DNA of 64,000 bases from an uncultured Candidatus Saccharibacteria bacterium (lineage in GTDB: Bacteria > Patescibacteriota > Saccharimonadia > Saccharimonadales > UBA10212). A program made the position numbers and the translations under genes. The notes beneath the pieces were generated by a model. The model saw only the letters and a list, made by a program, of their open reading frames with translations. It had not been told where the DNA came from and searched no databases. Location: NCBI GenBank assembly GCA_965231085.1, contig OZ246413.1:344971-408970 (forward strand), written 5' to 3'. This document shows, piece after piece, positions 6,807-61,792 of this stretch. The first letter of the stretch is position 1, and each line of letters starts with the position of its first letter.

Positions 6807-6827
6807 CTACACCGCTGACCACCCGAC

Positions 6828-8079: not shown

Positions 8080-8087
8080 TCCTCCTT

Positions 8088-12660: not shown

Positions 12661-12688
12661 CCTCGAATATATCCTGATAAATGAAGTA

Positions 12689-12714
12689 GGGGCGGCCCGT
12701 GTAGGACCGCCCCC
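12689..12714 (-). terminator. GC-rich hairpin downstream of the high-GC secreted-protein gene
   Basis: GGGGCGGCC-cgtgta-GGACCGCCCC. On the minus strand it is followed by UACUUCAUUUAUC. Confidence 0.45.
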
Positions 12715-12727
12715 GTGTTGTCCGCTC

Positions 12728-13117
12728 TTACGTCGAGCAGGACTCGTGCGCCGGCTTGCCCCACACCGTGGTTGCGTCCACGACGGTGACGTTCAGCCCC
12801 TTGATGAAGCACCTCACGTCCCAGTTGTAGACGATCACCGTGGCATGGTCGCTGGCGACCACAGTCGTGTGACCGTGCGCCGACACGACCGCATTGCCGG
12901 AGGCAATGGCAGTCGCACCCTTGTCGATGGACACGCAGCCGTTCTTGGAGACGACCACGACGACGCGCCCGGTGTAGGCCGACTGCTTGGTCGGGTCGGG
13001 GCAGGACGTCAGGTAGAGGTTGGTCGGCTTCGGCTTGTTGGCCGCGCTGGCCACGCCCGTGAGGGCGAGCATGGCGGCAACGCCGACGAGAACGAGACCG
13101 ATGAGCTGCTTACGCAT
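12728..13117 (-). CDS. Secreted small protein (signal peptide, 4 Cys), high-GC cassette
   Basis: 129 aa. Sec signal MRKQLIGLVLVGVAAMLALTGVASA with an AxA site. Repetitive V/A/T-rich beta-like segments and GC-rich third positions. RBS GGGGAAG. The surrounding DNA is low GC. Confidence 0.6.
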   Translation of the reverse strand: MRKQLIGLVLVGVAAMLALTGVASAANKPKPTNLYLTSCPDPTKQSAYTGRVVVVVSKNGCVSIDKGATAIASGNAVVSAHGHTTVVASDHATVIVYNWDVRCFIKGLNVTVVDATTVWGKPAHESCST

Positions 13118-13203
13118 GACTTCCCCTTTTCCGCGTTGTGCGGGTTGGTTGCGGGTGGAAGAGCGGTCCCCTTGACTATTGCTAGCCTTTGAGACTAAAA
13201 AAG

Positions 13204-13231
13204 ATTATATCAGATTGCTTCGATTTGTCAA
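13204..13231 (-). promoter_or_regulatory. Near-consensus sigma70 promoter driving the high-GC secreted-protein gene
   Basis: On the minus strand: TTGACA, a 16-nt spacer, then TATAAT (plus-strand tgtcaa 13226-13231 and attata 13204-13209). A roughly 90-nt leader reaches the ATG at 13117. Confidence 0.5.
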
Positions 13232-13233
13232 TA

Positions 13234-15270
13234 CTAGTTAAGGCTAGTTATTGCCCGGAGCTTACTTATCCGCTCAGCTAAATGCGGGTAATCAGTCAAC
13301 TTGTTTTTTCTATCTAGAAATTCTTGGGCCGCGCTTCGAGCCGATGCGATCAGTTTTGAATCGGTAAGCTTGGCAACTCGTAAATCTAATGCTCCGCTTT
13401 GAACCGTTCCATAGATAGCTCCTGGGCCCCGAAGCTCTAGGTCCAGCTCGGCCAGTTTAAAGCCGTCGCTCATAGTCTCTAGTGCCCTAAGCCGTTGACT
13501 CGGGGCTTTGCTATCGCTCATCTCTAAGTAACAATAGCTTTGATGCGCCCCCCGGCCCACCCGGCCCCTTAGCTGGTGGATTTGAGCCAGCCCGAACCGC
13601 TCGGCCCCAACTACTAGCATGACTGTTGCGTTTGGTACGTCCACTCCAACCTCTATAACCGTGGTGCTAACTAAAATATCGTACTTTTTAGCTATAAAAT
13701 CCTTCATAATTTTTTCTTTTTCTTCAGATTTCATCTTGCCATGAAGCATTGCCACCTTGCGGTGCTTAAAATCGTTATTTGCAAGTCGCCCGTAGGTTTC
13801 CTCGACTGATAAACCCTTGCTCAGATCGTTTTGGGTAATTAGAGGACAAACTACAAACATCTGACGACCCACTTTTAATTGGCTGTCTATCTTCTCATAT
13901 AAAGTTTTTCTTGAGTTTGGAGAAGTAACTTTTGTTTCTATTGTTTGACGACCAGGCGGTACTTCGTCCAGAACGGAAACATCTAGCTCGCCATATAAGG
14001 TAAGCGCTAGGCTCCTCGGGATTGGAGTGGCAGTTAGATGTAGTACGTGGGGCATGTGCCCAGCCTTGGCCTGAAGTTTTTTTCTTTGCTCAACCCCAAA
14101 ACGATGCTGCTCGTCAACAATAATCAAACCAAGACTATGCATATCAACCTTTTCACTAATGAGTGCGTGTGTGCCAACAATCATCTTTACTCTGCCTGAT
14201 TTTATTTTTTTATAAATCAGCGTCTTGGCAGCGGGCTTAAGGCTACCTACCAGTAGGGCAAGTTGGTCAGCGTGCCCGACACTGCTTAGTAATTTATGCA
14301 TTGTTTCTGCATGTTGACGGGCAAGTATTTCCGTTGGTGCCATGAAAGCAACTTGGTAACCCTGCTCCATGGCCATAAGGCCTGCCATAACCGCAACCAC
14401 TGTCTTCCCAGAGCCGACATCTCCCTCAACTAAACGGTTCATGGGATGTGGCTTCTCAAGATCTTGATATATTTGCCAGATTACTTTGCGCTGCGCTCCA
14501 GTTAATTTGAATGGGAGCTTGGCTACAAAGTCTTTTGCCAGATCTTGCTTAAACGGGATTAACACACTCTTTTCGTGAGATAATTCGTACTTATTAAGTA
14601 GAGCGGCAAGGGTTAGCTCAAAAACTTCTTCAAGCCCCAAACGTTTTTTAGCAAGCTCTAGTTCCGCAGCAGATGATGGAAAGTGCATTTCTGAGACTGC
14701 TTTTTTATAGTCGGTTAGCTTTTCCTTTTTTATCAGCCAAGCAGGCAAATGCTCGTTAAGTTCAAAATTATCTGTAAGTACTGTCCTGATTAACTTCCGT
14801 ATGGCCGATGACTTGAGCCCCTTTGTTTCACGATAAACCGGAATAATACGCGCGGTATTTACCGGGAAGTCGCTCACCAATTCCATCGACGGGTTTAATA
14901 TGCTAAACCGGTTTCTGCGCAGAGCATAGTCTCCGGAGATATAATATTTCACTCCAGGTTTTACTGCTGCTGAGCGATATGGCTGATTAAACCAAACCAG
15001 CCGAACGCTACCTGTAGCGTCAGAAGCAACTGCTTCGGTAATATGCATACCCCTGCGAACATACCGACCTTTTACTTCTTTTATAGTCACTTCAAGAGTT
15101 ACGGGGCCGGGATGCATACTAGCAATCGATGCAACGTTAGAATAATCATCGTACCGACGTGGATAGTAATCAACTAGATCACCAACTGTTCTTATGCCAA
15201 GAATGGTCAGTTTTTTTGCTAACTCATCACCCACCCCTTTTAGTTCGGTAATGTTTGCGCCAAGATTCAT
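13234..15270 (-). CDS. recG: ATP-dependent DNA helicase RecG
   Basis: 678 aa with an N-terminal wedge domain and helicase motifs (GDVGSGKT, DEQHRFGV, C-terminal QLRGRVGRG). Confidence 0.9.
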   Translation of the reverse strand: MNLGANITELKGVGDELAKKLTILGIRTVGDLVDYYPRRYDDYSNVASIASMHPGPVTLEVTIKEVKGRYVRRGMHITEAVASDATGSVRLVWFNQPYRSAAVKPGVKYYISGDYALRRNRFSILNPSMELVSDFPVNTARIIPVYRETKGLKSSAIRKLIRTVLTDNFELNEHLPAWLIKKEKLTDYKKAVSEMHFPSSAAELELAKKRLGLEEVFELTLAALLNKYELSHEKSVLIPFKQDLAKDFVAKLPFKLTGAQRKVIWQIYQDLEKPHPMNRLVEGDVGSGKTVVAVMAGLMAMEQGYQVAFMAPTEILARQHAETMHKLLSSVGHADQLALLVGSLKPAAKTLIYKKIKSGRVKMIVGTHALISEKVDMHSLGLIIVDEQHRFGVEQRKKLQAKAGHMPHVLHLTATPIPRSLALTLYGELDVSVLDEVPPGRQTIETKVTSPNSRKTLYEKIDSQLKVGRQMFVVCPLITQNDLSKGLSVEETYGRLANNDFKHRKVAMLHGKMKSEEKEKIMKDFIAKKYDILVSTTVIEVGVDVPNATVMLVVGAERFGLAQIHQLRGRVGRGAHQSYCYLEMSDSKAPSQRLRALETMSDGFKLAELDLELRGPGAIYGTVQSGALDLRVAKLTDSKLIASARSAAQEFLDRKNKLTDYPHLAERISKLRAITSLN

Positions 15271-22843: not shown

Positions 22844-23824
22844 CTACTGAGCGGGCTGTGTGCTGACCCTGGTATCTAAAGCTTTATATAGGCTGTTTTG
22901 AGTGTGAGCTAAATTATTATAGCTAGTGACCAAGTCATTAATCTCAGCCACCTGCGCATTATACTTGGCAACTAATGCCTTATAAGCCGCGACCCTGTTA
23001 TTAAATGGGTCTACGCCCTCATTATAGGTATTTATGTCTCCGGAGTTTTTTAGAGCTTGGAGTCTGTCAGATTCGGATTTCAAAGAGGTTTCCTGGCTAG
23101 CAATAATGGATTGCTCATCTGAGAGTTGAGATTTTAGGTCAGATATTTTTTGATTTATATCTGCTAGTTGCTGTCGATTTTGAGTAAAAACAGACTGGTA
23201 TTGATTAGCTAGTGCTACAACAGCCGAACGATTAACAAAGTATTTTTTATAGTAGCTCTCTAAACTTGGTGGTAAACTTGTGACCTCGGTACCAAAGATT
23301 GAGTGCATCTCGTTTAATAAACCATTGGGCTCAGTCTTTTTATATAAATTGATGATATCGATTAACCTCTGATCGTGGAGATCGTTATCGTAATAATTTT
23401 GCAATAGATTGTTGATATTCTTTTTGTCCGCTCGACTTAGGCGATCATAGGCCGCATGCAGCATTTCATGAGCAGCTGTAACCTGCTGGACTCCAGCCAG
23501 GCGCGGATCCTGGACGTCATATATGGCAATACCGCTTTCGCCCGCCATGTAACAACCAAGGACTATTGTTTGTTCGTCCTCTGGGCAATCCTGACGAAAA
23601 TTCTGAGTGTTAGAATCAAGTTTTGGATGGTTCACGTAAAAAAGATGCTTGGCATAGTCTGTCATAGTAACCTGCGAAGCAATACTTGCAACAGGTGCTG
23701 GAGCTGTATAGTTCAGTAATTTTACCCAGTCCTCTATGGCACTGGCCTTCCACCAAACAAGCGGCAAAATTGATAGCATCGCTGCCCACAACGCGATCCT
23801 TGTTAGTGATCTAACTGAGCTCAT
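22844..23824 (-). CDS. Membrane-anchored hypothetical protein with an HExxH motif and a C-terminal coiled coil
   Basis: 326 aa. N-terminal TM (IALWAAMLSILPLVWW), AAHEMLHAAYDR (HExxH), then a long Q/N/S-rich heptad-like segment. Sits between clpC and radA, 24 nt downstream of clpC. Confidence 0.5.
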   Translation of the reverse strand: MSSVRSLTRIALWAAMLSILPLVWWKASAIEDWVKLLNYTAPAPVASIASQVTMTDYAKHLFYVNHPKLDSNTQNFRQDCPEDEQTIVLGCYMAGESGIAIYDVQDPRLAGVQQVTAAHEMLHAAYDRLSRADKKNINNLLQNYYDNDLHDQRLIDIINLYKKTEPNGLLNEMHSIFGTEVTSLPPSLESYYKKYFVNRSAVVALANQYQSVFTQNRQQLADINQKISDLKSQLSDEQSIIASQETSLKSESDRLQALKNSGDINTYNEGVDPFNNRVAAYKALVAKYNAQVAEINDLVTSYNNLAHTQNSLYKALDTRVSTQPAQ

Positions 23825-28714: not shown

Positions 28715-29113
28715 ATGTCATCTAACAATTTTACAGCTAGCAGCTACCGACTCAGTCTAGGCAACCCCTTAACGGTTCTCATAACTGGTAATAAGGTAGG
28801 CAAACCCAACTTTCGTGTGATCTTGTACCAGAAAGGATTAAGGATTATAACTGCTCAGATTACGTACTACTCTCGTGGAACGACAAAAAATATCGAAGTT
28901 AAACGAATAAATCGCATCAACCGGCTTAACGAACTTCGGCTTCACACAACGGAAATACTCTATCCAGGAAAATACGTAATAAATATTACTTTTGAGGCTT
29001 TATCGAAAATAGATTACTCTAAATTAGACAAAGATACGGGCGACTTAAAAGCCTACTTACCCGTCGCCGACATAAGCGAACAAGCTAACAAACTGGAGAT
29101 TGTTGCCCGATAA
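28715..29113 (+). CDS. Hypothetical protein (132 aa), translationally coupled to pepF
   Basis: ORF with no recognisable motif. Its stop overlaps the pepF start (TAATGA). Confidence 0.4.
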   Translation: MSSNNFTASSYRLSLGNPLTVLITGNKVGKPNFRVILYQKGLRIITAQITYYSRGTTKNIEVKRINRINRLNELRLHTTEILYPGKYVINITFEALSKIDYSKLDKDTGDLKAYLPVADISEQANKLEIVAR

Positions 29114-32343: not shown

Positions 32344-33948
32344 TTAGTCTACAACCCTGTAAACTTCTTCGATACTAGTTAGCCCGGCAATAGCTTTGAG
32401 TATCCCATCTTGCAGCATGGTTCGCATACCTTCGGTAACAGCTTGTTTTTGGAGGTCTTCGGTTGTAATAACGTTAGGCGGTAACTTTAATAATCTTTGC
32501 ACACCTGGTGTCATAACCATTTGCTCCCGAATTGCTAACTGCCCATTATAGCCAAACGGATTTGCTTCACTCTTACCTGGTTTGTATAAGGTTAAGTTGT
32601 TTAGATCCGGTTTTTGAACGGTGTCAGGCAGAGTGTCTATGACTTTTTTGATCTGCATCTTCATAGCCTCGTCGGGTTGATAAGCCTGTTTTGTTTCATC
32701 GTCTAGTCTGCGGACTAGGCGCTGGGCCATAACAAGGTGCATAGCACTCGCAAATAGTGGGTTAATACCAACCATGTCGAGCATTCTAGTTAGGGCAGCG
32801 GCAGCTGATGAGGCGTGAAACGTGCTAAGAACCAAGTGGCCTGTTAGTGCTGCCTGTAGAGCGGTTTTGGCTGTATCTTGATCACGAATTTCACCGACCA
32901 TCACAACGTCGGGATCAAGCCTTAGCACAGCCCTCAAATTCTCAGCAAAGCTTTGCTTACCAAGTTGACCTTCCACTGGTATCTGAATTACTCCGGGCAT
33001 ATTGTATTCAACTGGATCTTCAAGTGTAACTATTTTGCGCTCTTCGGAGTTGAGTGTATTAATTAAAGAATATAGAGTTGTTGTTTTACCGGAGCCAGTC
33101 GGCCCTACAACCAGCACCATCCCCGTAGGGTGGCTAATAACGTCGTCAACTCTAGCCGCTTCATCCTTGCTAAGACCCAGGTTATCTAACTTAAAAAACT
33201 CTAATTTCAGATTAAATAGGCGCATTACAACATCTAATCCAAAAACGGTGGTAACAGCCTCAACTCTTAAATTAAGCGTGACTTCCTCGCCGGTTGCCAG
33301 CTGGTATTGACGACTTATGTGCCCAGACTGGGGTTGCTTCTCGCCGGTTGAAATGTTGGCAGCACTGGCCACCGAAGATACCAGATGACGATATTTATCT
33401 TGCGTAATATCAGCTACGTGGTGCAAAACGCCGTCGATTCTAAATCGGACCCGGACTTTTTCCTTCTGAGTCTCTAGATGTATATCACTGGCTTTTAGGC
33501 TATATGCTTGCTGAACTAAGTAGGCCAAAATGTCGTCCGGCTTAACTTGATCAAGAGCAGCACTGACTCGTGAGACCATGTCTGTGGTTGTCGTTGAGTT
33601 GTCGGCTATGGCTATGTCTTCATAGTGAACCTCTTTAGGAGGATCATAAAGCTTCATGTAATCATCAAATGTTTGGTCGGAGATAAGAGTGAAATCTAAT
33701 CGTTGATCGCTAAATCTTGTTCTTAAACTATTAATAGTCTGCTGCGCCGTCGTTGTCGTTACTCCAAAATTTATATAGTGCTCATCGGCTACTAGCGGCA
33801 CAACGCGCATTTTATATAATTCTGCGTTGCTTAAAATATTTCTAAATAATTGCTTCTGGATTTTAGTTCCATCAACATAAGGCATATTAAGGACTCCAGC
33901 TCGTTTCTGGGTGGCTTGCTCAGCTGTCAATCTCACATCCTGTGGCAT
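32344..33948 (-). CDS. pilB: Type IV pilus assembly ATPase (PilB/GspE family)
   Basis: 534 aa with Walker A VVGPTGSGKTTTLYS, Asp box, Walker B and His box as in secretion ATPases. Confidence 0.8.
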   Translation of the reverse strand: MPQDVRLTAEQATQKRAGVLNMPYVDGTKIQKQLFRNILSNAELYKMRVVPLVADEHYINFGVTTTTAQQTINSLRTRFSDQRLDFTLISDQTFDDYMKLYDPPKEVHYEDIAIADNSTTTTDMVSRVSAALDQVKPDDILAYLVQQAYSLKASDIHLETQKEKVRVRFRIDGVLHHVADITQDKYRHLVSSVASAANISTGEKQPQSGHISRQYQLATGEEVTLNLRVEAVTTVFGLDVVMRLFNLKLEFFKLDNLGLSKDEAARVDDVISHPTGMVLVVGPTGSGKTTTLYSLINTLNSEERKIVTLEDPVEYNMPGVIQIPVEGQLGKQSFAENLRAVLRLDPDVVMVGEIRDQDTAKTALQAALTGHLVLSTFHASSAAAALTRMLDMVGINPLFASAMHLVMAQRLVRRLDDETKQAYQPDEAMKMQIKKVIDTLPDTVQKPDLNNLTLYKPGKSEANPFGYNGQLAIREQMVMTPGVQRLLKLPPNVITTEDLQKQAVTEGMRTMLQDGILKAIAGLTSIEEVYRVVD

Positions 33949-34009: not shown

Positions 34010-34522
34010 ATGCAGAAGATAGTTTTAGTAATCTACAACGTCCGATCCACCCACAATGTCGGGAGCATGCTTCGAACTGCTGATGGGCTGGGCGTCGAAA
34101 AGGTTATTTTTAGTGGCTATACGCCCTATCCCCAAACCGATAACGATGAACGCTTACCTCATGAATCTAGAAAAATAGCAGCCAGTATCAATAAAACAGC
34201 CTTGGGAGCCGAAAAAACCGTAGACTGGGAACACCAAGCCGACATCTATAAAGTGATTGATGAGCTACGAAGCAAGCATTATCAAATATGCGCACTGGAA
34301 CAAGACAGTCAATCGGTAGACCTTAGCAGCTATAGACCTCTTAGTAAGGTGGCGATTATAGTTGGAGCTGAAGTTAACGGGCTACCTAGAGCCATTCTAG
34401 ACAAAGTTGATAAGATTCTCGAGATAAAAATGATCGGCAAGAAAGAATCCTTTAACGTATCGGTGGCTGCGGCTATTTGTCTTTACCACCTTAGGCAATC
34501 TGGACAAATAAACATTAGCTAG
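34010..34522 (+). CDS. SPOUT (TrmH/TrmL family) RNA 2'-O-methyltransferase
   Basis: 170 aa with SpoU motifs (NVGSMLRTADGLGVEKV, IVGAEVNGL, ESFNVSVAAAI). Confidence 0.7.
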   Translation: MQKIVLVIYNVRSTHNVGSMLRTADGLGVEKVIFSGYTPYPQTDNDERLPHESRKIAASINKTALGAEKTVDWEHQADIYKVIDELRSKHYQICALEQDSQSVDLSSYRPLSKVAIIVGAEVNGLPRAILDKVDKILEIKMIGKKESFNVSVAAAICLYHLRQSGQINIS

Positions 34523-44322: not shown

Positions 44323-46293
44323 TCATAATTTGGCTTTTATTTCGGCGATTAAATCACGTAGGTCAGCAGCTTTTTCAAATTCTAAGTTAGCGGCGGCCAA
44401 ATCCATCTGGGCCGTCAAATCGTGCATCAAATGTTTGTATTCGTCTTTTGGTATTTTCTTAAGATCAATATTGCGTCTTTGGGCTGCCGTTTGTTCCTTT
44501 GATTCATGGGGCAGCATATCACCAACCACTCGGCTGATGCTGGTAGGAGTTATGCCGTTATCCTCATTGTATTTTGCCTGGATTTTACGACGTCGGTTTG
44601 TCTCATCAATTGTCTGCTTCATACTACCGGTAATATTATCGGCATACATTATGACTCGACCCTCTTGGTGGCGAGCTGCCCGGCCTACTGTCTGGATCAG
44701 TGCCTGTGAGCTTCTTAGGAATCCTTCTTTATCAGCGTCCATAATAGCTACTAAGCTAACTTCTGGCAGGTCTAGCCCCTCGCGCAGTAAGTTAATACCT
44801 ACTAGGACGTCGTAAACGCCTAGTCTGAGGTCTCTTAAAATATCAACCCTATCAAGCGTATCTACTTCGGAGTGAATATAAGATACTTTAATGCCGAGTT
44901 CTTTAAGGTACTCACTCAGATCTTCGGCCATGCGCTTTGTTAAAGTCGTAACTAAAACTCGTTGTTTCTTAGATGTGGTATGCCTAATTTCAGCAATCAG
45001 GTCATCGATTTGACCCTCGGTTTTACGAATTTCTATTACCGGATCAAGCAAGCCTGTCGGGCGTATAATCTGCTGAATCGGCTCAGGGCTTCTTGATAGC
45101 TCATACTCAGCCGGGGTAGCACTAACATATACAACTTGGTTGATATGTTTTTCAAACTCGCTAAAAGTTAATGGTCTATTATCTAGAGCGCTAGGTAGTC
45201 GAAAACCATAATCTACTAAAACTTCTTTCCTGGCTCGATCGCCATGATACATCCCACGGACCTGCGGAATACTCATATGGGATTCATCAATTATCATTAG
45301 GTAATCGTCTGGAAAATAATCTAGTAGCGTAGCCGGTTGCTCGCCCGGCTCACGGTTTGTTAGGTAGCGACTATAGTTCTCAATGCCTTTTACAAAGCCG
45401 GTAGTTTCGAGCATTTCCAGATCAAACTTCACTCGCTGCTCTAATCGCTGGGCCTCTACAAGTTTGTCGTGAGATTTGAACCATTTGATACGCTCATCGG
45501 CCTCTTCGCGAATTTTAACCATGGCTAACTTTAACTTTTGCTCAGGCGTTACATAGTGCGAGCCAGGAAAAATCGTAACCTCCGTAAGCTCGGCTTCAAT
45601 TTCACCAGTCAGTGGATTAACCTTTGTAATTCGATCTACTTCTTCGCCAAATAATTCTACTCTGTAAGCCGATTCCTCGCCGGCTGGATATATATCAATC
45701 ACATCGCCCCGAACCCTGAATGTACTGCGATGGAAATCTATATCATTACGTCGATACTGAATATCTGTAAGTTGGCGCAGTAACTTATCCCGAACTCGCC
45801 TTTCACCTTTTTTTAATCTAATAGCCAGACTGTCATAATCTTCAACCGATCCGATGCCGTATATACATGAAACACTGGCCACAATAATCACGTCACGGCG
45901 AGACAATAAGGCGGCGGTTGCAGCATGACGCAACCGATCAATTTCTTCATTAATGGCGCTGTCCTTTTCTATATAAACATCGCTACGAGCTATATAGGCC
46001 TCTGGCTGGTAGTAATCAAAATAGCTTACAAAATAATGCACCGCATTATCTGGGAAGAACAGTCTAAATTCGTTATAAAGTTGAGCAGCCAAAGTTTTGT
46101 TATGAGATAAAACCAGGGTTGGTTTACCGGTATTGGCGATAAGATTGGCCATAGTAAAAGTTTTACCACTACCGGTTACACCTAACAGCGTTTGCTCCTT
46201 AACAGCTTGGTTGAGTCCATCGGTCAATGCAGCAATAGCCGCAGGCTGATCGCCCTGCGGTTGATAGTCACTAACTAACTTGAAGTCACTCAC
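44323..46293 (-). CDS. uvrB: Excinuclease ABC subunit B
   Basis: 656 aa with [10 protein letters not shown], helicase motifs and a C-terminal UVR domain. Confidence 0.9.
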
Positions 46294-46311: not shown

Positions 46312-46911
46312 TTAACTGTAGAGATCCTTATACGGCTTATGAATCGTGTCGAGAAGGCTAGTTAACTTTGCTACTAATTTTTCTGGGTCGTCATCAAACA
46401 TTACATAATCTGGATTAGCGTTAGGCAGCAACTTCATAAGTTCGGGTATTTGATCACCTATACCACCGGCACCATCCAAAATCCCGATAGGTGTATGGGT
46501 TTCGGCAGCAATCGTAAATTCATGTAAAGTCCCCAGCCTGCCACCAATACTGATTACAGCGTCGGCCGAATTAATGAGCAGGGCGTCACGTCCTCCGTAA
46601 TGCAGACCGGTGTAAAGAATGGCGTCATAACTTGCTGTAGGCAATCGGTATTTCAGCATATGCTCAACTTTGGTCGAGGCTGGACTAAGGCCCAAACTCA
46701 TGGCCCCGCCAGCCTTTTTATAACCGATGGCCGCCTCATTGGGTAATCCCGTAGTAGCTCCAGTCATTAAACTATGGCCAGCCTTGGCAATAGCTGCACC
46801 AACCGCCAAGGCAAGTCTTTTGCCCTGGTCGGCACTGTGGCCTTTAGCTGCACCCGACACGCATATTTGGTATTTACCCATTATTATCAATACCCTCCAT
46901 CTCTGTAGCAA
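46312..46911 (-). CDS. LOG family (TIGR00725-like) Rossmann-fold nucleotide-binding protein
   Basis: GGxGTxxE-like motif (IGGRLGTLHE) and GGRD. The likely start is the internal MGKYQ (about 46881). Confidence 0.55.
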   Translation of the reverse strand: MLQRWRVLIIMGKYQICVSGAAKGHSADQGKRLALAVGAAIAKAGHSLMTGATTGLPNEAAIGYKKAGGAMSLGLSPASTKVEHMLKYRLPTASYDAILYTGLHYGGRDALLINSADAVISIGGRLGTLHEFTIAAETHTPIGILDGAGGIGDQIPELMKLLPNANPDYVMFDDDPEKLVAKLTSLLDTIHKPYKDLYS

Positions 46912-47926
46912 ATTCCTTGGCCGGATTTAGTAGTTCTCCGGTTTTTTCCTCGGCCATCTCTTCTGCAGCCACGATATCAGCTGGCAGAGCTTCCAATTTA
47001 TCTTTGTAGCGGCTAACAAGTTCATTCCAAAAAGCCATCTTGGCTTTTTCTTTCGAACGATCCTCATAAGAAGCCCCGTTGATGTGTGCCTGGGCGATAT
47101 CTTTATAGTTTAACGAAATCGGCTGACCATCGTTCCAGGCCATTAAATGTTCGGCATCTTCCCACCAGGCTAGTGTTGGATTAAGATGAGATAATTTTTT
47201 GGCGGGTTTGACAGTAGCCATTTGGCTAATTTGATCATGAAGCGCCAGGGTCAACGACAGAACCGATATTCTATTAGCCACGGTTGATTCCGCTATGGCT
47301 GCAACTCCGAGCCTCGAACTATTATTAGCGGTATTAGCCACCCCCCATTTTTTACGTTCTAAAACTACCAGCTGGACTGGCCGAAGTTCAAAGTCAGCAC
47401 TTGTATATTTTGCTAGCTTCGAGTTGAAATTCCTCAACCAAGTCGGCGATTCTAATAAGGTAGCCCCGTAGGCCAACTCAAAAGTGTCCTCACGCTTTAG
47501 CATAGAATCTAACGATCTGTAGTGAAGCCGCCTTAGAGTCTTTGGCACCCCGAGAGAAATTAATGTTTTACGAAGCTGCCCCTTTTTAAGGGCCCAGACC
47601 TGTCCGATGCCCTCCATATGCTCTAAAAAGCTTTTGGCCTTTTCAAGCTTATCCGTAAGAGAAGCTTCCTTGCTGACACCCAGAGCTCTATCAATAATCG
47701 CACCGTCTCTTTCAAAACGAGCTAGTAGGGCATGGTAAAGTTCCTCGCCTGTGGTGTCATTTGGGTCCAGACCAAGATCTCGTATTTTAGCCTTAACTTT
47801 TTGGGCAGACTCAGCCAGCAACCGAACATCCTCGCTTTTATATCCAACCTTTTGTTCAAGCTTGTTGATAACACCCGCAATATGCGTCTCAGGTTTATCA
47901 AGCAAAGTTGCTAAAACCCTTGACAT
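46874..47926 (-). CDS. Hypothetical protein (about 350 aa), no recognisable family
   Basis: Long ORF of consistent composition. The track start at 47968 overlaps pfkB by 41 nt, whereas the internal Met (MSRVLATL) sits 1 nt after the pfkB stop, so that start is preferred. Confidence 0.45.
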   Translation of the reverse strand: MSRVLATLLDKPETHIAGVINKLEQKVGYKSEDVRLLAESAQKVKAKIRDLGLDPNDTTGEELYHALLARFERDGAIIDRALGVSKEASLTDKLEKAKSFLEHMEGIGQVWALKKGQLRKTLISLGVPKTLRRLHYRSLDSMLKREDTFELAYGATLLESPTWLRNFNSKLAKYTSADFELRPVQLVVLERKKWGVANTANNSSRLGVAAIAESTVANRISVLSLTLALHDQISQMATVKPAKKLSHLNPTLAWWEDAEHLMAWNDGQPISLNYKDIAQAHINGASYEDRSKEKAKMAFWNELVSRYKDKLEALPADIVAAEEMAEEKTGELLNPAKEFATEMEGIDNNG

Positions 47927-47927
47927 G

Positions 47928-48935
47928 TTAAGCAATCCTTTCGGGATGGTACCACTTAGGCGCTTCACGCAATAAATGTTCTACTTCCCGAACATTAAGC
48001 AACCCAGCCTGCGCCCCAACCTTTTGAACTACACTCATGGCGTTAATTGGAGCCCAAAGTAGCGCTCCCTCTATGTCCGCACCATGCATAATGGCCGCTA
48101 CAAAGGTTGAAGTAAAGGCATCGCCTGCCCCGGTTCGCTCAAAAGGTGGCTTAGGGTCAGGGTAGATAGGCATTTTAAACCTTTTTTCGCCGTCACTAGC
48201 ATAAGCACCGTCATGACCGTCGCTTATAACTACAATCTTGGGCCCAAGGGCATGCAGCTTATCGAAAAGGTCATGGATGTCATTATGCTTTCCGCCGGAA
48301 ATTTGTGCCGCCTCTTCACGATTGACTGTCAGTATCTCTGAGCGTTCGTAAATTCTCTTTAGTCTTTTTGCCCCGGCCTTGATCTGAAAGGTACCCGGCT
48401 GAAAGGCTAGTTTAACTGGTAAATGACCGTCTAACCAACTCGCCAACTGGTCGTGATAATCAAGGGCATGCTCGCTTACGGAGCTGAAGTAAATCCATTT
48501 AGGAATATCGCTAATTCTAAAATGAGGCCAATGATATTCATAGTCTTCATGCTTGATTAAAATAGTTCGTTCTTCCTTATACCAAAGCACGTAGTGGTAG
48601 TTGCTTTGTTTATCGTGGTTTATGTGCACAAATCGAGCGTCGACTCCGGCTTTATGTAGAGCAGCCAGAATTTCACGCCCCTGTTCATCCGAGCCGATAT
48701 TTGCAACTAGCCCGGACTTGAGGCCGAGTCTGCTAAAAGCGACTGAGGCATTAGAAGCATTGCCAACAGCTGGGATGATCTCCTTATGGTCAAACGGTAC
48801 CTTAGTTCCAAAGGGAATAGCCAGCCAGTTACCATCGGCTCGATGCTCAACCCGCTCTTCTTCATCAAACAACTTTATAAAAGCGTCGGTTACTACGTCG
48901 CCAACTGCTAGAACATCTAGATTAGACTGGGCCAT
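47928..48935 (-). CDS. PfkB-family carbohydrate/nucleoside kinase
   Basis: 335 aa with an N-terminal GD dyad and the C-terminal TGAGDAFTS anion-hole motif. Confidence 0.75.
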   Translation of the reverse strand: MAQSNLDVLAVGDVVTDAFIKLFDEEERVEHRADGNWLAIPFGTKVPFDHKEIIPAVGNASNASVAFSRLGLKSGLVANIGSDEQGREILAALHKAGVDARFVHINHDKQSNYHYVLWYKEERTILIKHEDYEYHWPHFRISDIPKWIYFSSVSEHALDYHDQLASWLDGHLPVKLAFQPGTFQIKAGAKRLKRIYERSEILTVNREEAAQISGGKHNDIHDLFDKLHALGPKIVVISDGHDGAYASDGEKRFKMPIYPDPKPPFERTGAGDAFTSTFVAAIMHGADIEGALLWAPINAMSVVQKVGAQAGLLNVREVEHLLREAPKWYHPERIA

Positions 48936-49004
48936 CTGTTATTTATACCTTATACCGCTCGTGTTTACAGCTTAAATTGTAGCATAAACCATGAGCAAAA
49001 TAAC

Positions 49005-49033
49005 TTGACCTAGAGGGGTTTGTGTTGTATAAT
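49005..49033 (+). promoter_or_regulatory. Consensus sigma70 promoter for the intergenic small RNA
   Basis: TTGACC (49005-49010), a 17-nt spacer, then TATAAT (49028-49033). It points away from pfkB toward fba. Confidence 0.55.
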
Positions 49034-49039
49034 ATTCGA

Positions 49040-49293
49040 ACATCATGCGTCTGTACCCACCCTACGGTAGCATGGTCTCTTGATCAATCCTCTGGCCCCG
49101 ACGCTGCGCCGAGGTGAGACCAAGAGCGGAGCAGTCGTTCGACTCCGGGCAGCGGCATGCGAACCCGCGCCTCCCGTCGCAAGTTCGAAGCGATGCTATC
49201 GACGACTCGAACAGCTGGGAGGGGTGCGCGCCCGCGCTCCCCTCCCACACTCAACTTATAAAAGTCTTAGGACCCAACAAGAGGTCTTTTTTT
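49040..49293 (+). ncRNA. Candidate structured small RNA (about 250 nt, GC-rich), identity unknown
   Basis: Bounded by the promoter above and a hairpin/U7 terminator (AGGACC-caacaaga-GGUCUU-UUUUUUU, 49269-49293). Multiple nested perfect helices, for example GGUCUC...GAGACC, GUUCGA...UCGAAC and GGGAGGGG...CCCCUCCC. No ORF is compatible with the terminator. Confidence 0.4.
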
Positions 49294-50233
49294 ATACCTT
49301 GGCCTTACCGGCCGAGTTAAAGTTATCAATCTTGGATTCGACAACTTTTTGTACTTGATCTATGACTTCACCCATAAGCTTAACCACTGCATATTCTTCC
49401 TTGTTTTCTTTTAAGACCTTCTCCAGAGTTTCACGATAAGCAATCCTCATATCACTATTGATATTTATTTTCGTAACGCCAATCTTTACAGCTTCCACAA
49501 AATAGTGGCCTGGCGTGCCGCTACCACCATGCAGTGAAATATTACAGTCGATTGCAGCGCGTATTTTCCGTAACAAATCTAGGTCTAGTTTTTTTGGTAC
49601 CGGGTAATGTCCGTGTAAATTGCCAACTGCTGCCGCGAAAGTATCGATACCGGTAGCCGTAACAAAAGCCTTTGCCCCAGCCGGAGTGGTAAAAGTCTTC
49701 TTAATTTCGGCGTAATCAATTTTTTCTTTATGCAAATTACTCGAACCACCAAAATAATGCGGCTCAGCCTCTACCATAGCGCCGGTTAGCTTAGCAGCCT
49801 GCACCACCCGAACGGTTTTTTCTATTATCTCTTCGTCGGTGGCGTCATGGTTGGCTTGTGAGATATCGATGTGTATGCATTCAAACCCAGCCGTGATTCC
49901 AGCAATAGCGTCCTCAACCGATGGGCTGTGGTCGAGGTTAATATACATTTCAATTTTGTAGTCCTTTTTGTAATTATCAACCATGTCTCGAATATTATCT
50001 AAGCCCATGGCATCGACTTCGCCCTGGCTGACCTCCACTAGAACCGGAGCCTTCATTTTGGCTGCTGCTTTTGCTACGGCAATTAATGTTTCTTGGTTGT
50101 CTAGGTTAAAAGCTCCTAAGGCAAAATGCTCTCTTCGGGCCCGCTCAAAGCAAGCTCGCGCTTCTTGGCAGTTTTTCCGGATTTCGGTCATGGTGTGACT
50201 CATGCCTACAATTGTAAATGCTTGTGGTTGCAA
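49292..50233 (-). CDS. fba: Class II fructose-bisphosphate aldolase
   Basis: LGAFN..., INLDHS and LHGGSG motifs. The start is uncertain (TTG at 50233 or ATG at about 50203). Confidence 0.8.
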   Translation of the reverse strand: MQPQAFTIVGMSHTMTEIRKNCQEARACFERARREHFALGAFNLDNQETLIAVAKAAAKMKAPVLVEVSQGEVDAMGLDNIRDMVDNYKKDYKIEMYINLDHSPSVEDAIAGITAGFECIHIDISQANHDATDEEIIEKTVRVVQAAKLTGAMVEAEPHYFGGSSNLHKEKIDYAEIKKTFTTPAGAKAFVTATGIDTFAAAVGNLHGHYPVPKKLDLDLLRKIRAAIDCNISLHGGSGTPGHYFVEAVKIGVTKININSDMRIAYRETLEKVLKENKEEYAVVKLMGEVIDQVQKVVESKIDNFNSAGKAKV

Positions 50234-50265: not shown

Positions 50266-50637
50266 ATGAGCGAAAAGAAATTGGCCCATTTTGAAGATAG
50301 AGAAGATGTCCGAAAAGTGATTGGAATACACCTCGAGTCCATGGGACACTCAGTTGTGGCAGTAGCAACCAATCTACGCGAGGCCCTGGAGACTATCGAT
50401 CAAATTGCCAGTGGCGGTATTGAGGTTGACGCTATCATTCTTGACGGAAATCTTAAACAGGGTGCAAATGATAATCAAGACGCGAGAGACATTGTTGCCT
50501 ACGCCAAATCAAAGGGAGTAACAGTCCCAATAATTGGTTTTGCAAGCGAATCTTTAACAAAGCGAGGTATTGCAGTTGATCACGACCCAACAAAACAAGA
50601 TATACCTGGGTTACTAAAAATTATCGGCGATCTTTAG
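50266..50637 (+). CDS. Stand-alone receiver-like (CheY-fold) domain protein, atypical
   Basis: 123 aa with a beta-alpha pattern and a conserved Asp in AIILDGNL, but the acidic pocket DD is replaced (FEDRED). Tentative. Confidence 0.35.
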   Translation: MSEKKLAHFEDREDVRKVIGIHLESMGHSVVAVATNLREALETIDQIASGGIEVDAIILDGNLKQGANDNQDARDIVAYAKSKGVTVPIIGFASESLTKRGIAVDHDPTKQDIPGLLKIIGDL

Positions 50638-55535: not shown

Positions 55536-55542
55536 TGTAGAA

Positions 55543-55615
55543 CTGCGCGCGCGGGGTTCGAACCCGCGTTACCTGCACCGTTGGCAGGGGTTCTAGGCCA
55601 CTGAACTAGCGCGCA
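55543..55615 (-). tRNA. tRNA-Arg (anticodon ACG) with atypical A33 and G37
   Basis: Acceptor TGCGCGC/GCGCGCA, D arm GTTC...GAAC, anticodon stem CCTGC/GCAGG with loop CAACGGT, T loop TTCGAAC. No CCA is encoded. It directly abuts the upstream tRNA. Confidence 0.65.
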
Positions 55616-55688
55616 AGCGGCTGAGAGGGCTCGAACCTCCGACCTCCCTCGATCATGAGGGCGCTCTAGCCTACTGAGCTACAGCCGC
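55616..55688 (-). tRNA. tRNA with an abnormal 6-nt anticodon loop (CAU or GAU family; Met/Ile-like body)
   Basis: The body closely resembles tRNA-Ile(GAU) (D arm TAGCTCAGTAGGCTAGAGC; AGGTCGGAGGTTCGAGCCCTCTC). The anticodon region CCCTC-ATGATC-GAGGG is one nt short of the canonical 5-7-5 arrangement. Confidence 0.5.
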
Positions 55689-55740
55689 GGGCAAATCTTG
55701 GTGCATATGCTGCAACTACAATTTCTACCCAGAACTACTA

Positions 55741-55814
55741 AGTCGGTGATGGGGCTCGAACCCACGACCTCCTGCATGGCAAGCAGGCGCTCTAGCCAAC
55801 TGAGCTACACCGAC
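55741..55814 (-). tRNA. tRNA-Gly (anticodon GCC)
   Basis: Acceptor GTCGGTG/CACCGAC, anticodon stem CCTGC/GCAGG with loop TTGCCAT, T loop TTCGAGC. No CCA is encoded. Confidence 0.8.
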
Positions 55815-55865
55815 CGGCAAATCTTTTGGAGCTACTACTAGCTACGACAAATTGTTGCCACTTAA

Positions 55866-56030
55866 TGGGCGTGGGAGGAATCGAACCTCCGACCTCTAGT
55901 TTCTCTATCTGACGTTTCAATTTGATGTCTTGAAACTTCCCCGAGCGTCCCCGGGACTCTCAATCATCTTTACTTTATCAGCAAAACAGAGAAAAACAAC
56001 TAGCACTCTAACCAACTGAGCTACACACCC
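55866..56030 (-). tRNA. tRNA gene interrupted by a roughly 90-nt insertion in the anticodon arm (putative intron or disrupted tRNA); identity undetermined
   Basis: The 5' half GGGTGTGTAGCTCAGTTGGTTAGAGTG-CTAGT and the 3' half ACTAG-AGGTC-GGAGGTTCGATTCCTCC-CACGCCC-A form a canonical acceptor/D/T/anticodon-stem cloverleaf. Between them lie 98 nt that fold into helices of their own (UUCUCUG...UAGAGAA; GUUUCAA-9nt-UUGAAAC; CCCG...CGGG). Confidence 0.55.
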
Positions 56031-58250: not shown

Positions 58251-60761
58251 TTAAATCCTTTCAGCTTTAAGTTTTAGTTTAGCTTGAGCCGCAACGTCAT
58301 CCAGGAGCTTATTAGTCTCTGTAGTTGTTAGAGTCCTGCTTGGGTGCGCTAGGCTAATACGCCAGGTCGTCTGCTTGTCTTTACCGCCGGCCTCTTTTTG
58401 ATAAATATCAACCGCTGACAACGTATATTGATAGCCGTGATTTTTACTAAGGCTAGCTATGGTCTTAGCTACGAACGCACTCAGTTCACCGTAGCTTACA
58501 CTAGCTTCTGTTTTAAGGCATAAGTCCTGCTCTGTACTCGGGAAACGGTTTAAAGATTTATAGATTATTGGTCGGCTTAGGGCTTCCAGTTGTGCTAGAT
58601 CAACCTCAAACATTGCAGTTGCGGCTGGGAGTTTGAGCCTTGTGACTAAAGCTTGGTTTGGCTCACCCAACACGCCAATTATTTGGCCACCGGCACTTAC
58701 ATATGAGCTCCTGTTTGTTTCATAAAAGCTTACAGAATGACGCTGACTTTTTTGTGATCCAACTGGCATAAATTCTAGATCAAAAATATTTAACCTCGAT
58801 AGTAAAAACTCCAGATAGTGTTTGGCCCAATAGTACGGAGCGCCGGCAATTTTGTTCTTTGTGATTACAAACGCTAAGTTGCTTAGCTCCTGTGGAAGCT
58901 GTTCCTTGTCTACGATATTTCTATTATGTACTGCTCCCATCTCAAAAATGCCAAATTCTTTGTAGCCTTGTTTTATGTTAGCGTGAACCTTCTCTAGCAA
59001 ACTGGGAACTACTGACATCCTATAATATTGGACCTCTGGGCTTAGGGCATTTTTTATGTGATATGTATTTCTGGCGCTTTGGCCGCTAGCTTCAAGTAGC
59101 GCACCCGGGATAAAGCTGTAGGTCAGAACTTCGTTAGCTCCAGCCGAAGCCAAAATATTTCTAATCTTTGTTTTTATTTCAAGATTTGGGTTGGCTGGAG
59201 CCGGATCAATTGCTTTAACTGGTAAAGCCAAAGGCAGTTGGCTGTATCCATATAGTCGCCCGACTTCTTCAACAATGTCTTCTACAATCTCGATATCAGT
59301 TCTCCAAAAAGGAGCTTCAACCATTAGGCCCCTACTGCTCTCGCTAAGCGTGAACTCGACATTCTTCAATAAATGTTTGATAGCTGGCAGCGTTAGACCA
59401 GGTAGACCGAGAAGACCACCAACAACCTTAGCATCGCTAATTAAGACTTGCTTGGGGTCAAATTTACGAGCTTTAAGGTCTATGGTTTTGCCTGCAACCT
59501 GACCGCCTGCATATTTTTTAATCTCGCCGACGGCGTAAGCCAAAACGGCCATGTTCTGACGAGGTGATTGCCCCTTGGTGAACCTGGTTGAGGCGTCCGT
59601 AAATAAACCATAGGTCATAGATGTTTTGCGGATCAGATTCATATCAAAATTACCGCACTCAATAATAATGTTCTTTGTACTGTCATCGACTTCCGTCTCC
59701 GCACCGCCCATAATACCGGCTAGGCCGATGGGTTTAGTGCCATCGGTTATCACAATGGCCCCATCTTCAAGTTTTAGTTTCTTGCCACCCAACAATGTTA
59801 GTTCCTCGCCTTTTTTGCTAAGTCGGACGGCTATTTCAGCTGACTCTTTACTGCCCTTTACTTTATCGTAATCATAGGCATGAATTGGCTGGCCAGTTAA
59901 ATGCATGACAAAATTAGTGACATCAACAATATTGTTAATCGGTTTAATGCCAACTCGCGCTAGCGCCGATTGCATAAAGTAAGGGCTGGCTTTTACTTGT
60001 ACGCCCGCCACTGCACTTAGGCAAAATCTGGGCACTTGTTTATCGGACCAGTTTTTTACAAGCAGCGGCAAGGGTTTGGTTTCGGATTCAATTTGAGCAA
60101 ACTCGTCGTACCAATCAGGGCTTTTAAAACTAAGGTGATTAATCCCCGCCAGTTCACGAGCCAAACCTAATATTCCAAAGCAGTCTGGACGATGTGTGAA
60201 CATCTTGTTTTCTATATCTACGATTGTGTCGTCCAAACCGTAGAGGTTCTTAAAAGGGGTACCGCGTTTAATATTTTTATCACCAACCTCGGCTGGATCA
60301 ATAACTAAAATACCGCTGTGATCATTGCTTATTCCAAGCTCTGAAGCACTGGCCAACATTCCATTGCTCAGCACCCCTCTTAGCTCTCTGGCGTCTAGTA
60401 CCAGCGGGTCTTTATCAAAAGTAGTTGGCACGGTCGCGCCCGGCGGTATCCAGGCGACCAATTGCCCGGCAGCTACATTGGGTGCGCCGCAAACCACTTG
60501 GACTAAACCATTCTTATCACGTTTAACTTTTTCAACCACACCACCGTCATCAATCAGACAAATACTTAATTTATCAGCGTTTTCGTGTTTTTCGCAGGAT
60601 ATCACTTTAGCAACTACGATACCGTCAAATTTTTGCCCCCACTCGACAACCTCATCAATTCCACCAAGCTGTTCACCAATTTTACTTAACAGTGTTTGTT
60701 TATCTATGTTTTTAATATCAACATTGGAATAATACTGCGCCCAATTAAGACTTAACTTCAT
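58251..60761 (-). CDS. pheT: Phenylalanyl-tRNA synthetase beta subunit
   Basis: 836 aa with tRNA-binding, B3/B4, B5 and FDX-ACB domains. Its start overlaps the pheS stop. Confidence 0.9.
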   Translation of the reverse strand: MKLSLNWAQYYSNVDIKNIDKQTLLSKIGEQLGGIDEVVEWGQKFDGIVVAKVISCEKHENADKLSICLIDDGGVVEKVKRDKNGLVQVVCGAPNVAAGQLVAWIPPGATVPTTFDKDPLVLDARELRGVLSNGMLASASELGISNDHSGILVIDPAEVGDKNIKRGTPFKNLYGLDDTIVDIENKMFTHRPDCFGILGLARELAGINHLSFKSPDWYDEFAQIESETKPLPLLVKNWSDKQVPRFCLSAVAGVQVKASPYFMQSALARVGIKPINNIVDVTNFVMHLTGQPIHAYDYDKVKGSKESAEIAVRLSKKGEELTLLGGKKLKLEDGAIVITDGTKPIGLAGIMGGAETEVDDSTKNIIIECGNFDMNLIRKTSMTYGLFTDASTRFTKGQSPRQNMAVLAYAVGEIKKYAGGQVAGKTIDLKARKFDPKQVLISDAKVVGGLLGLPGLTLPAIKHLLKNVEFTLSESSRGLMVEAPFWRTDIEIVEDIVEEVGRLYGYSQLPLALPVKAIDPAPANPNLEIKTKIRNILASAGANEVLTYSFIPGALLEASGQSARNTYHIKNALSPEVQYYRMSVVPSLLEKVHANIKQGYKEFGIFEMGAVHNRNIVDKEQLPQELSNLAFVITKNKIAGAPYYWAKHYLEFLLSRLNIFDLEFMPVGSQKSQRHSVSFYETNRSSYVSAGGQIIGVLGEPNQALVTRLKLPAATAMFEVDLAQLEALSRPIIYKSLNRFPSTEQDLCLKTEASVSYGELSAFVAKTIASLSKNHGYQYTLSAVDIYQKEAGGKDKQTTWRISLAHPSRTLTTTETNKLLDDVAAQAKLKLKAERI

Positions 60762-61792
60762 GAAAATTGCCTCAAGAATTTAAGATTACCTGATTCAAAA
60801 TGGCGAATATCTTCAATTCCATACTTAAGCATTACTAGTCTCTCGATCCCAAAACCCCACGCAAAGCCCGAGAATTCTTCGCTGCTAATCCCCGCTTCTT
60901 TTAGAACGTTGGGGTGGATCATGCCGCACCCACCTAACTCAATCCAGCCAGTGTAACTACAGACATTACAGCCCTTTTCGTCACAAAATGGGCAACTTGC
61001 AGCAAATTCGAAACTGGGTTCAGTAAAAGGAAAATAAAATGGTTGGATCTTAATTTTTACATCTTTACCAAAGTAGTTAGATAGCCAGGTTTTAATTGTG
61101 GCAGCTAGCATTCCGGTATGTACGTTTCTGTCTACATACACCCCCTCTATTTGATAAAAAGTATGCTCATGTCGAGCATCGAGATCCTCGTTGCGAAAGA
61201 CTCTGCCGGGTATAACTGCAGCTATCGGCTTACCGGATTTTAGGTTAGCCTTATTCTCTTTCAGAACCCGGTTTTGCATAGTACTAGTATGAGCTGGGGC
61301 AACTAAGCCCTCGTCCGTTACAAAAGTGTCATATTCGTCCCTGGCTGGATGGTCTAGTGGAAAGTTTAAGCTAGTAAACATATGGTAATCGTCGTCTATC
61401 TCGCGAGACTCATAGGCCATAAAACCCATTTTGGCGAAAATATCGACGACCATTTCAAGCTCAGTCATCAGAGGGTGCTTGCTGCCAGCGTCCGCATCAA
61501 ACAAGTTTGGTCTGTCCGTTTCTTTTACGTTGATATCAAACGGAGCTGTTATGTCTATTGGGGTTATCTCTATTTTAGATTCCTGGCTTGCTAGAGCCTC
61601 TAAATCTTGTTTTAACTTATTGACTTCCTTACCAAACTCAGCTCGCTGGGCCCCTGCCGGTAAGGTTTTGATGTGATCGTACAAAGCAGCAAGCTCTGGT
61701 GAGCGCAAAACAGATCTTCTGTCCTCTAGCGAGTCAACCTTGGCTAGAAGTTTTTTGGCAATCGCCGCCACTTGTTCGTTTTTATAATCCAT
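60758..61792 (-). CDS. pheS: Phenylalanyl-tRNA synthetase alpha subunit
   Basis: 344 aa class II core (FRNEDLDARHEHTFYQIEG, GWIELGGCGMIHPNVL). Confidence 0.9.
   Translation of the reverse strand: MDYKNEQVAAIAKKLLAKVDSLEDRRSVLRSPELAALYDHIKTLPAGAQRAEFGKEVNKLKQDLEALASQESKIEITPIDITAPFDINVKETDRPNLFDADAGSKHPLMTELEMVVDIFAKMGFMAYESREIDDDYHMFTSLNFPLDHPARDEYDTFVTDEGLVAPAHTSTMQNRVLKENKANLKSGKPIAAVIPGRVFRNEDLDARHEHTFYQIEGVYVDRNVHTGMLAATIKTWLSNYFGKDVKIKIQPFYFPFTEPSFEFAASCPFCDEKGCNVCSYTGWIELGGCGMIHPNVLKEAGISSEEFSGFAWGFGIERLVMLKYGIEDIRHFESGNLKFLRQFS

Follow-up and report, generated by a model that had tools for sequence, protein, structure and literature searches.

The junction of fba and pfkB in a Candidatus Saccharimonadales genome houses an element of about 300 base pairs (bp), rich in guanine and cytosine (GC) and dense in hairpins, which raises the question of whether it is a gene and, if so, of what kind. 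We examined it within a stretch of 64,000 nucleotides (nt) of contig OZ246413.1 (forward-strand positions 344,971 to 408,970; hereafter the window, whose own numbering is used throughout). The original prediction, made from the letters alone, saw here an unassigned structured small RNA (sRNA) with its own promoter and terminator. Our answer, which is tentative, is that the element may well be a real non-coding RNA gene, recently acquired, independently transcribed into an RNA of about 250 nt and convergent with fba.

This answer rests first on two signals of the plus strand.

49005-49033, plus strand: sigma-70-type promoter, with the -35 box TTGACC at 49005-49010, a 17-nt spacer and the -10 box TATAAT at 49028-49033 (11 of 12 consensus matches).
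49269-49293, plus strand: intrinsic-terminator-like site, with the 6-bp hairpin AGGACC/GGTCTT at 49269-49288 and a T-run at 49287-49293.

The promoter was the only site returned by a promoter scan of positions 48500-49800, and the hairpin at 49269-49288 gave the only terminator-like site in the same interval. The promoter, described earlier as perfect, is present where it had been placed, but with 11 of 12 matches it stops short of the full consensus. Its 17-nt spacer is of the optimal length; judging from its spacing, transcription would start near 49040. As predicted, the hairpin and its U-run lie about 250 nt downstream and overlap the fba stop: of the seven T in the run, two belong to the hairpin stem and the last two to the fba stop codon (49292-49294, minus strand), a 2-base overlap. 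Read on the minus strand, this hairpin exchanges one G-U pair for a C-A mismatch and lacks a comparable U-run behind it. In 100-nt windows, GC content climbs from 0.37-0.47 to 0.62-0.69 over 49050-49249 and returns to 0.38; the flanks measure 0.37-0.40 and the whole window averages 0.45, so that the body is indeed far richer in GC than its flanks. A GC-rich body with AT-rich flanks is the usual aspect of structured RNA genes in AT-rich genomes.

Promoter matches of at least 11/12 occur three times in the 64-kb window when both strands are counted (1.6 expected). The combination of such a promoter with a terminator-like site on the same strand, 100-420 nt further on, was found once, as compared with a mean of 0.15 in composition-matched sequences obtained by first-order Markov resampling. 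This pair exactly brackets the only GC-rich island of the window that holds neither a transfer RNA (tRNA) cluster nor a convincing open reading frame (ORF), within a gap of 359 nt. The element therefore shows some of the features by which an independent sRNA gene is recognised, namely its own promoter and an intrinsic terminator around an ORF-poor intergenic segment. The tRNA cluster, the only other non-coding GC island of the window, is preceded by a TTGCGA-17-TAGAAT promoter and followed by a canonical GC hairpin with a U-tract, indicating that the organism uses such signals.

Whether the element is native to this locus was addressed by comparison with relatives. The features concerned are these:

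47928-48935, minus strand: pfkB-family carbohydrate kinase, the next gene after fba in the same operon.
48976-48984, minus strand: the extended -10 element of pfkB itself, TGCTACAAT, with the same motif in the same place in L084, L085 and L078.
48995-49291, either strand: the inserted segment, approximate, as delimited by alignment of the flanks with relatives; it comprises the promoter, the GC-rich body, an AT-rich linker and the terminator.
49292-50233, minus strand: fba, class II fructose-bisphosphate aldolase (PF01116; extent from the ORF list), convergent with the element.

With the start used in public gene calls, fba encodes 299 amino acids (aa; 49292-50191). The genes form part of a conserved minus-strand operon (gap, rpiB, rpe, a split transketolase, fba and pfkB), and the named relatives of the PfkB-family kinase are almost all from Candidatus Saccharimonadales or Saccharibacteria. 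The terms divergent for pfkB and convergent for fba, used in the original prediction, thus hold relative to the proposed plus-strand RNA, but as genes the two stand in tandem.

We compared the pfkB locus of 80 species-level Saccharibacteria genomes and of nearer relatives from public assemblies. In most of the roughly 70 related loci that contain both genes, the fba-pfkB gap measures 23-130 nt, as against 359 nt here. The short gaps in relatives, together with the aligned flanks, indicate that the whole unit is an insertion, present among the loci examined in this lineage only. It is bounded by the fba stop codon on one side and by the conserved pfkB promoter on the other, the latter lying just outside and back-to-back with the promoter of the element. 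Because the insert carries promoter and terminator together, a transferred gene fits better than a random fragment. A contig from the Logan assemblies (L001) is 100% identical over 302 nt, so that an assembly artefact confined to a single record is excluded. The larger fba-pfkB gaps of other species apparently hold small ORFs or, in L034, an N-terminal extension of PfkB, and no similar RNA.

No terminal inverted repeats were found at the insert boundaries, and no second copy of the element in the window or in 525 kb of fetched loci. There is a 13-nt direct repeat (12 of 13 positions identical; 48939-48951 and 49288-49300, 349 nt apart; AAGGTATAAA[T/A]AA on the minus strand), with one copy in the ribosome-binding region of pfkB and the other on the fba stop; it flanks the element together with the pfkB promoter and may be due to chance or be the trace of a rearrangement. 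In the closest other species (87% PfkB identity), represented by contigs from two samples (L082 and L083), both contigs end 7 nt upstream of the pfkB start. At the site that the element occupies here, the shared end could reflect a repeat, a structure that is hard to assemble or variation between strains.

What would the RNA look like? The nested helices listed in the original prediction were all recovered at their coordinates: GGTCTC (49075-80) with GAGACC (49117-22), CCTC-T-GGC (49089-96) with GCCGAGG (49109-15), GTTCGA with TCGAAC (49207-12), and GGGAGGGG (49217-24) with CCCCTCCC (49239-46), the last forming part of 15-nt arms that are 93% complementary. They fall into four predicted domains.

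49042-49076, plus strand: hairpin H1, with stems 49042-48/49070-76 and 49051-55/49063-67 and the apical loop CCCACCC at 49056-62.
49075-49126, plus strand: hairpin H2, with the outer helix GGUCUC/GAGACC or the shifted CUCUUG/CAAGAG, and the inner helix CCUC-U-GGC/GCCGAGG.
49132-49217, plus strand: domain P3, a 14-bp outer helix with two mismatches (49132-45 with 49204-17) that encloses two smaller hairpins.
49216-49247, either strand: hairpin H4, about -28 kcal/mol, formed by a GC palindrome that is nearly perfect (TGGGAGGGGTGCGCG / CGCGCTCCCCTCCCA).

Both the minimum-energy and the centroid fold are a series of local stem-loops, in which the 5' end forms H1 alone. H4 makes up the 3' end of the GC-rich body and has no U-tract behind it. 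By a rough estimate, the chance expectation of a palindrome like H4 in this region is about 1e-4, and an inverted-repeat scan indicated that the regularity of H2 and H4 is far beyond chance.

The hairpins are less informative as to the strand. H1 is more stable on the plus strand (-12.0 as compared with -9.4 kcal/mol on the minus strand, where two of its G-U pairs become mismatches), as is the terminator hairpin, whereas H2 (-18.5 plus, -25.5 minus) and P3 (-31.4 plus, -35.6 minus) favour the minus strand and H4 is symmetric. On the plus strand, the z-score of global folding against shuffled sequences was -2.05 for the core and reached -3.17 once the terminator was included; the minus strand gave -2.11. 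The hairpin energies leave the strand undecided, and only the promoter and the T-run argue for plus.

The functional strand might then be the minus strand, with intercistronic or 3'-untranslated hairpins that stabilise or terminate the fba messenger RNA (mRNA) and insulate pfkB in the manner of REP/BIME-type hairpin clusters, the plus-strand promoter being incidental. The overall fold is stronger on that strand (-101 as compared with -86 kcal/mol, with a like z-score), in keeping with the greater stability of H2 and P3; the element directly follows the stop of fba, which has no other terminator, and pfkB has its own conserved promoter downstream of it. We nevertheless regard this explanation as unlikely: on the minus strand the hairpins are not followed by any U-tract, the element is single-copy in the window and belongs to no repeat family, only the plus strand has the 11/12 promoter and the T-run, and the relatives do without any such element.

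Could it be a known RNA? At gathering thresholds, Rfam 15 returned only four tRNAs from the whole window and nothing at the element, and with permissive filters (E≤10) it returned only noise over 48900-49400, in the form of plant and animal microRNA and internal ribosome entry site models placed on H4. ARAGORN found no tRNA or transfer-messenger RNA (tmRNA) at the element and no tmRNA in the window. These blanks indicate that the element is not an RNase P RNA, a tmRNA, a signal recognition particle (SRP) RNA or a 6S RNA as currently modelled. The original prediction had been unable to match it by eye to the first three, and the searches agree. The bacterial RNase P models (conserved P4 regions) gave no match at E≤10, and about 250 nt is short for the bacterial types of that RNA. 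For tmRNA, which combines a tRNA-like domain with a tag frame, ARAGORN returned nothing in the window, and there was no Rfam match; nor did SRP RNA, small or large (helix 8/domain IV), yield one at E≤10. The suggestion that size and structure would suit 6S RNA was not supported: there is no covariance-model match at E≤10, the fold lacks both a stem closing the 5' and 3' ends into a rod and a central bubble, and the locus is not conserved.

A highly divergent housekeeping RNA that was relocated and escapes the Rfam models, with 6S RNA as the only candidate of suitable size, would account for a length of about 250 nt, a strong promoter and a high GC content, all of which suit an abundant stable RNA, and 6S RNAs are poorly conserved in sequence. 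Besides the failure of the 6S, SRP, RNase P and tmRNA searches even with permissive filters, and a fold without end-closing stem or central bubble, a new insertion missing from this locus in every relative would be unexpected for such an RNA, and we consider this explanation extremely unlikely.

Other candidate identities were also rejected. A riboswitch or cis-regulatory leader does not fit, because what lies downstream is the antisense of fba, the next plus-strand ORF begins at 50266, about 970 nt away, and no riboswitch family matches. Integron attC-like sites were discarded since the core motifs do not fit. A selenocysteine insertion (SECIS) arrangement of the TGA at 49081 and a hairpin fails in that the loop does not begin with the expected G, no stop closes the frame ahead of the terminator and the code is the standard one.

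The coding potential of the element was then of interest, as the original prediction held that no plausible ORF ends before the terminator. This is not literally true, given the following ORF.

49157-49261, plus strand: 34-codon ORF with an ATG start, MRTRASRRKFEAMLSTTRTAGRGARPRSPPTLNL, taken from the ORF list and considered non-coding.

It ends 8 nt before the terminator hairpin, has no Shine-Dalgarno sequence upstream, contains H4, the strongest hairpin, and has its highest GC at codon position 2. A second start, the ATG at 49045, lies 11 nt past the -10 box in the plus frame that is rich in third-position GC (GC3), where it is followed by TGA at 49081 (12 codons) and then by no further stop before the terminator. 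Across the three codon positions GC is 0.55/0.73/0.60, and each half of the element repeats this phase, a pattern that is suggestive but short of significance (p about 0.07 by a chi-square estimate); the GC-rich genes of the window, with third-position GC of 0.90 or 0.82, show a far stronger periodicity. Between 49120 and H4 there is no stop codon in any plus-strand frame, indicating that this is not the 3' end of a gene followed by its own terminator.

Protein searches were equally unproductive. The longest stop-free stretches of the six frames, concatenated into a query aimed also at spurious ORFs called over a conserved RNA, had no homolog at E≤10 in 5.8 billion predicted proteins, and tblastn of two frames against phages gave no match. 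When frame +0 was searched exhaustively with HMMER against 1.84 billion representatives, a single marginal match came up (E=4.5e-4), which we rejected because the matched sequence is itself a spurious ORF, spanning tandem repeats of 228 nt in a contig that is unrelated and has no DNA similarity to the element. In that metagenome contig (L094, 3020-3691) the 228-nt unit is present in 2.9 tandem copies and includes a long palindrome (GTCATTGCGAGCGCAGCGCGGCAATCC ... GGATTGCCGCGCTGCGCTCGCAATGAC); the stretch has been called as protein P0241, of 220 aa. A coding origin of the element is unsupported.

A small protein, either the 34-aa, arginine-rich product of 49157-49261 or a near-leaderless peptide from the ATG at 49045, is likewise extremely unlikely. 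The longer ORF has an ATG and ends close to the terminator hairpin, and the position of the ATG at 49045 relative to the -10 box recalls many genes of the window that look leaderless or nearly so. Missing from both, however, are a Shine-Dalgarno sequence and any homolog among the 5.8 billion proteins; the 34-aa ORF would have to be read across a hairpin of -28 kcal/mol, with its GC peak at the wrong codon position, and the other has only 12 codons.

As to those leaderless-looking genes, a -10-like box (TAnAAT, often TGnTAnAAT) precedes many start codons of the window by 6-12 nt without a Shine-Dalgarno sequence, for example at 3313-4593, 4613-5908, 13234-15270, 22844-23824, 28715-29113, 32344-33948, 34010-34522, 44323-46293 and 60758-61792, suggesting that this genome commonly makes mRNAs with no leader or almost none. 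Strong GGAGG or GGGAG sites are present at other genes of the window.

The chief competing explanation sees the element as GC-rich DNA of horizontal origin that survives as a non-functional remnant (a decayed gene cassette, for instance, or another foreign fragment), its promoter and terminator being leftovers or fortuitous AT-rich matches and any transcript a by-product with no selected role. We consider it possible, if somewhat doubtful. It agrees with the confinement of the element to one lineage and its absence from all relatives examined, with the weak codon-phase periodicity that is consistent across both halves, and with the ATG at 49045 in a GC3-rich frame broken by the TGA at 49081, as in a pseudogene. 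It also agrees with the presence of other acquired-looking GC-rich islands in the window (6051-6850, 7381-9060 and 12651-13190), the last of which is likewise laid out as a consensus promoter, a GC-rich body and a GC hairpin, but encodes a protein. Several observations do not fit a remnant: no frame has a protein homolog in either the 5.8 billion or the 1.84 billion sequences, the stop-free stretch from 49120 to H4 precludes a gene 3' end with its terminator, the periodicity is not significant, and a correctly oriented promoter and terminator bracketing the body would be a coincidence, with about 0.15 such pairs expected per 64 kb.

The islands themselves deserve description. The one at 12651-13231 (minus strand) is driven by the only 12/12 promoter of the window, TTGACA-16-TATAAT starting at 13231, and reaches 70% GC; within 12651-13190, a 129-codon ORF for a protein with a signal peptide (12728-13117; GC3 of 0.90) follows a clear ribosome-binding site and precedes a GC-rich terminator hairpin. 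The 129-aa protein belongs to no Pfam or PHROG family and has no phage match, and the island at 12651-13190 has the appearance of an acquired cassette. GC content is highest, up to 0.72, in the island at 6051-6850 (to 7282). This island has a TTGTGC-17-TATAAT promoter before it and a hairpin after it, with plus-strand ORFs at 6101-6349 (82 aa, cysteine-rich) and 6339-6806 (155 aa) and a neighbouring one at 6938-7282 (114 aa). None of the three matched a PHROG family, or a Pfam family, the second having been scanned against Pfam only in its longer form, 6219-6806. Positions 7381-9060 contain pyrE-like and pyrF-like genes of 63-65% GC in a genome of 45% GC. The closest named pyrF homologs (55-72% identity) are all from Patescibacteria, so that transfer from Actinobacteria does not account for the high GC, and an actinobacterial origin of the GC-rich islands was not demonstrated.

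Several results weigh against a functional RNA gene, the reading that we prefer. The element is missing from the 80 Saccharibacteria species loci and from the nearer relatives, including four of the closest (79-82% PfkB identity), in which the gap measures 43-63 nt. The original prediction had named such a lack of conservation in related genomes, alongside a lack of transcription, as telling against a novel sRNA, which may nevertheless be the right reading. Folding is only modestly better than that of shuffled sequences, with z about -2 and alike on both strands; the minus strand gives H2 and P3 the greater stability; and the terminator hairpin is weak (-6.1 kcal/mol). The cassette at 12651-13190, since it encodes a protein, indicates that an AT-rich promoter followed by a GC-rich body and a GC hairpin is not specific to RNA genes in this genome. 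Duplex energies with the 50 start regions of the window, as potential trans targets, were no better than those of shuffled RNAs.

Finally, there is no homolog in any collection searched, and so no covariation or sign of selection. The element had no blastn match in 85 related loci, 72,556 plasmids and 50,697 phage genomes, and an exact-word scan of viral contigs with two words found none. Four exact matches of one 20-mer in metagenome contigs were due to chance, identity ending at 20-23 nt in unrelated GC-rich coding DNA. A covariance model of the single sequence with its predicted fold recovered only the element itself in 525 kb. As potential targets, sites resembling AGGGTGGGT were not over-represented.

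If the element is an RNA gene, how might it act? A cis-antisense or insulating effect on fba and pfkB appears the likeliest mechanism, proposed with less confidence than the gene itself. The element would be a self-contained transcription unit of about 300 bp, recently inserted at the fba-pfkB junction of one Saccharimonadales species. RNA polymerase would start near 49040 from TTGACC-17-TATAAT, the GC-rich RNA would fold into the four stem-loop domains H1, H2, P3 and H4, and transcription would mostly end at the weak hairpin and U-run on the fba stop, giving a non-coding RNA of about 250 nt. As the unit is convergent with fba in what was formerly an intercistronic gap, this RNA would be fully complementary to any fba read-through toward pfkB. 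Polymerases arriving from the two directions would collide head-on, and the consequence in cis would be that pfkB, keeping its own conserved promoter, is uncoupled from fba, and that the 3' end or the stability of fba mRNA is altered. Action in cis on a neighbouring transcript is the working mode of convergent antisense RNAs.

In its boldest form, which we judge highly unlikely, the proposal is that the element is the sole known copy of an undescribed structured RNA, horizontally acquired, which serves as a leader with conditional terminator read-through in the manner of an excludon. Read-through past the fba stop could produce a long antisense RNA over fba and into the receiver-domain gene at 50266-50637 (plus strand), and could couple the expression of a glycolytic enzyme to that of a signalling protein. 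Such a read-through switch would need alternative pairing, and the inverted-repeat scan showed two possible partners for the 5' arm of H2 (49077-49091): its local one and the 5' arm of the terminator.

The gene at 50266-50637 is a 123-aa ORF with a weak receiver-domain match, located in antisense between the transketolase C-terminal gene and fba. Those two genes abut in the closest relatives examined, and in many other species the site holds 400-1000 nt of variable content, including, in L034, a homolog of 33% identity. In the present genome, fba is thus flanked by two antisense insertions. On the other side of the element, pfkB is followed in all close relatives by the gene found at 46874-47968 (minus strand), which encodes a conserved protein of about 350 aa without a Pfam family, and in them then by an LDcluster4 (LOG-like) gene.

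The tRNA cluster (55542-56030, minus strand) has some peculiarities of its own. About 90 nt are inserted past the anticodon region of the tRNA at 55866-56030, which is found by Rfam and missed by ARAGORN; the anticodon loop of that at 55616-55688 is unreadable to ARAGORN; and the tRNA-Arg at 55542-55616 has one base in common with its neighbour. CCA is encoded in none of them.

Saccharibacteria are ultra-small epibiotic bacteria with reduced genomes, and the literature searched held nothing relevant on their small RNAs. If transcribed and functional, the element would be among very few candidate regulatory RNAs described in them, and an example of the way in which a newly inserted convergent unit can split a conserved glycolysis and pentose-phosphate operon. 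If it is instead a foreign remnant, it would illustrate that finding a promoter and a terminator around a GC-rich island does not suffice to call a structured RNA gene where GC-rich coding DNA is acquired. With one sequence only in existence, the element cannot currently seed an RNA family.

The acquired-looking cassette at 12651-13190 (minus strand) shares with the element an AT-rich consensus promoter, a GC-rich body (about 70% in the cassette) and a GC-rich hairpin, but has the Shine-Dalgarno sequence, the 129-codon ORF with signal peptide and the GC3 of 0.90 that the element lacks. Repetitive extragenic palindromic (REP) and bacterial interspersed mosaic (BIME) elements likewise form clusters of stable GC-rich hairpins straight after a stop codon inside an operon; unlike them, the element is single-copy in the window and the fetched loci and has an oriented promoter and terminator. 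6S RNA (RF00013) is similar in length, is non-coding and possibly has a similarly strong promoter, but the element has no covariance-model match, no rod or central bubble, and no conserved locus. The loops CCCACCC (H1) and CCCCGA (H2) recall the C-rich-loop sRNAs, such as the Rsa family of Staphylococcus and the 6C RNA of Actinobacteria, and could in principle pair with G-rich ribosome-binding sites, although the element shows neither an Rfam match nor target enrichment.

The closest likeness is to convergent, cis-encoded antisense sRNAs, with which the element shares a sigma-70-type promoter and a terminator of its own opposite the operon strand, the location of that terminator on the stop of the convergent gene, a predicted length of about 250 nt and full complementarity to any fba read-through. 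It differs from them in that its body is a foreign-looking, GC-rich, multi-hairpin insert and not native antisense to a coding region, and in that the predicted transcript overlaps the fba coding sequence by 2 nt only. Under the reading that we prefer, the element would thus be a lineage-specific small or antisense RNA gene, and not a new class of RNA.

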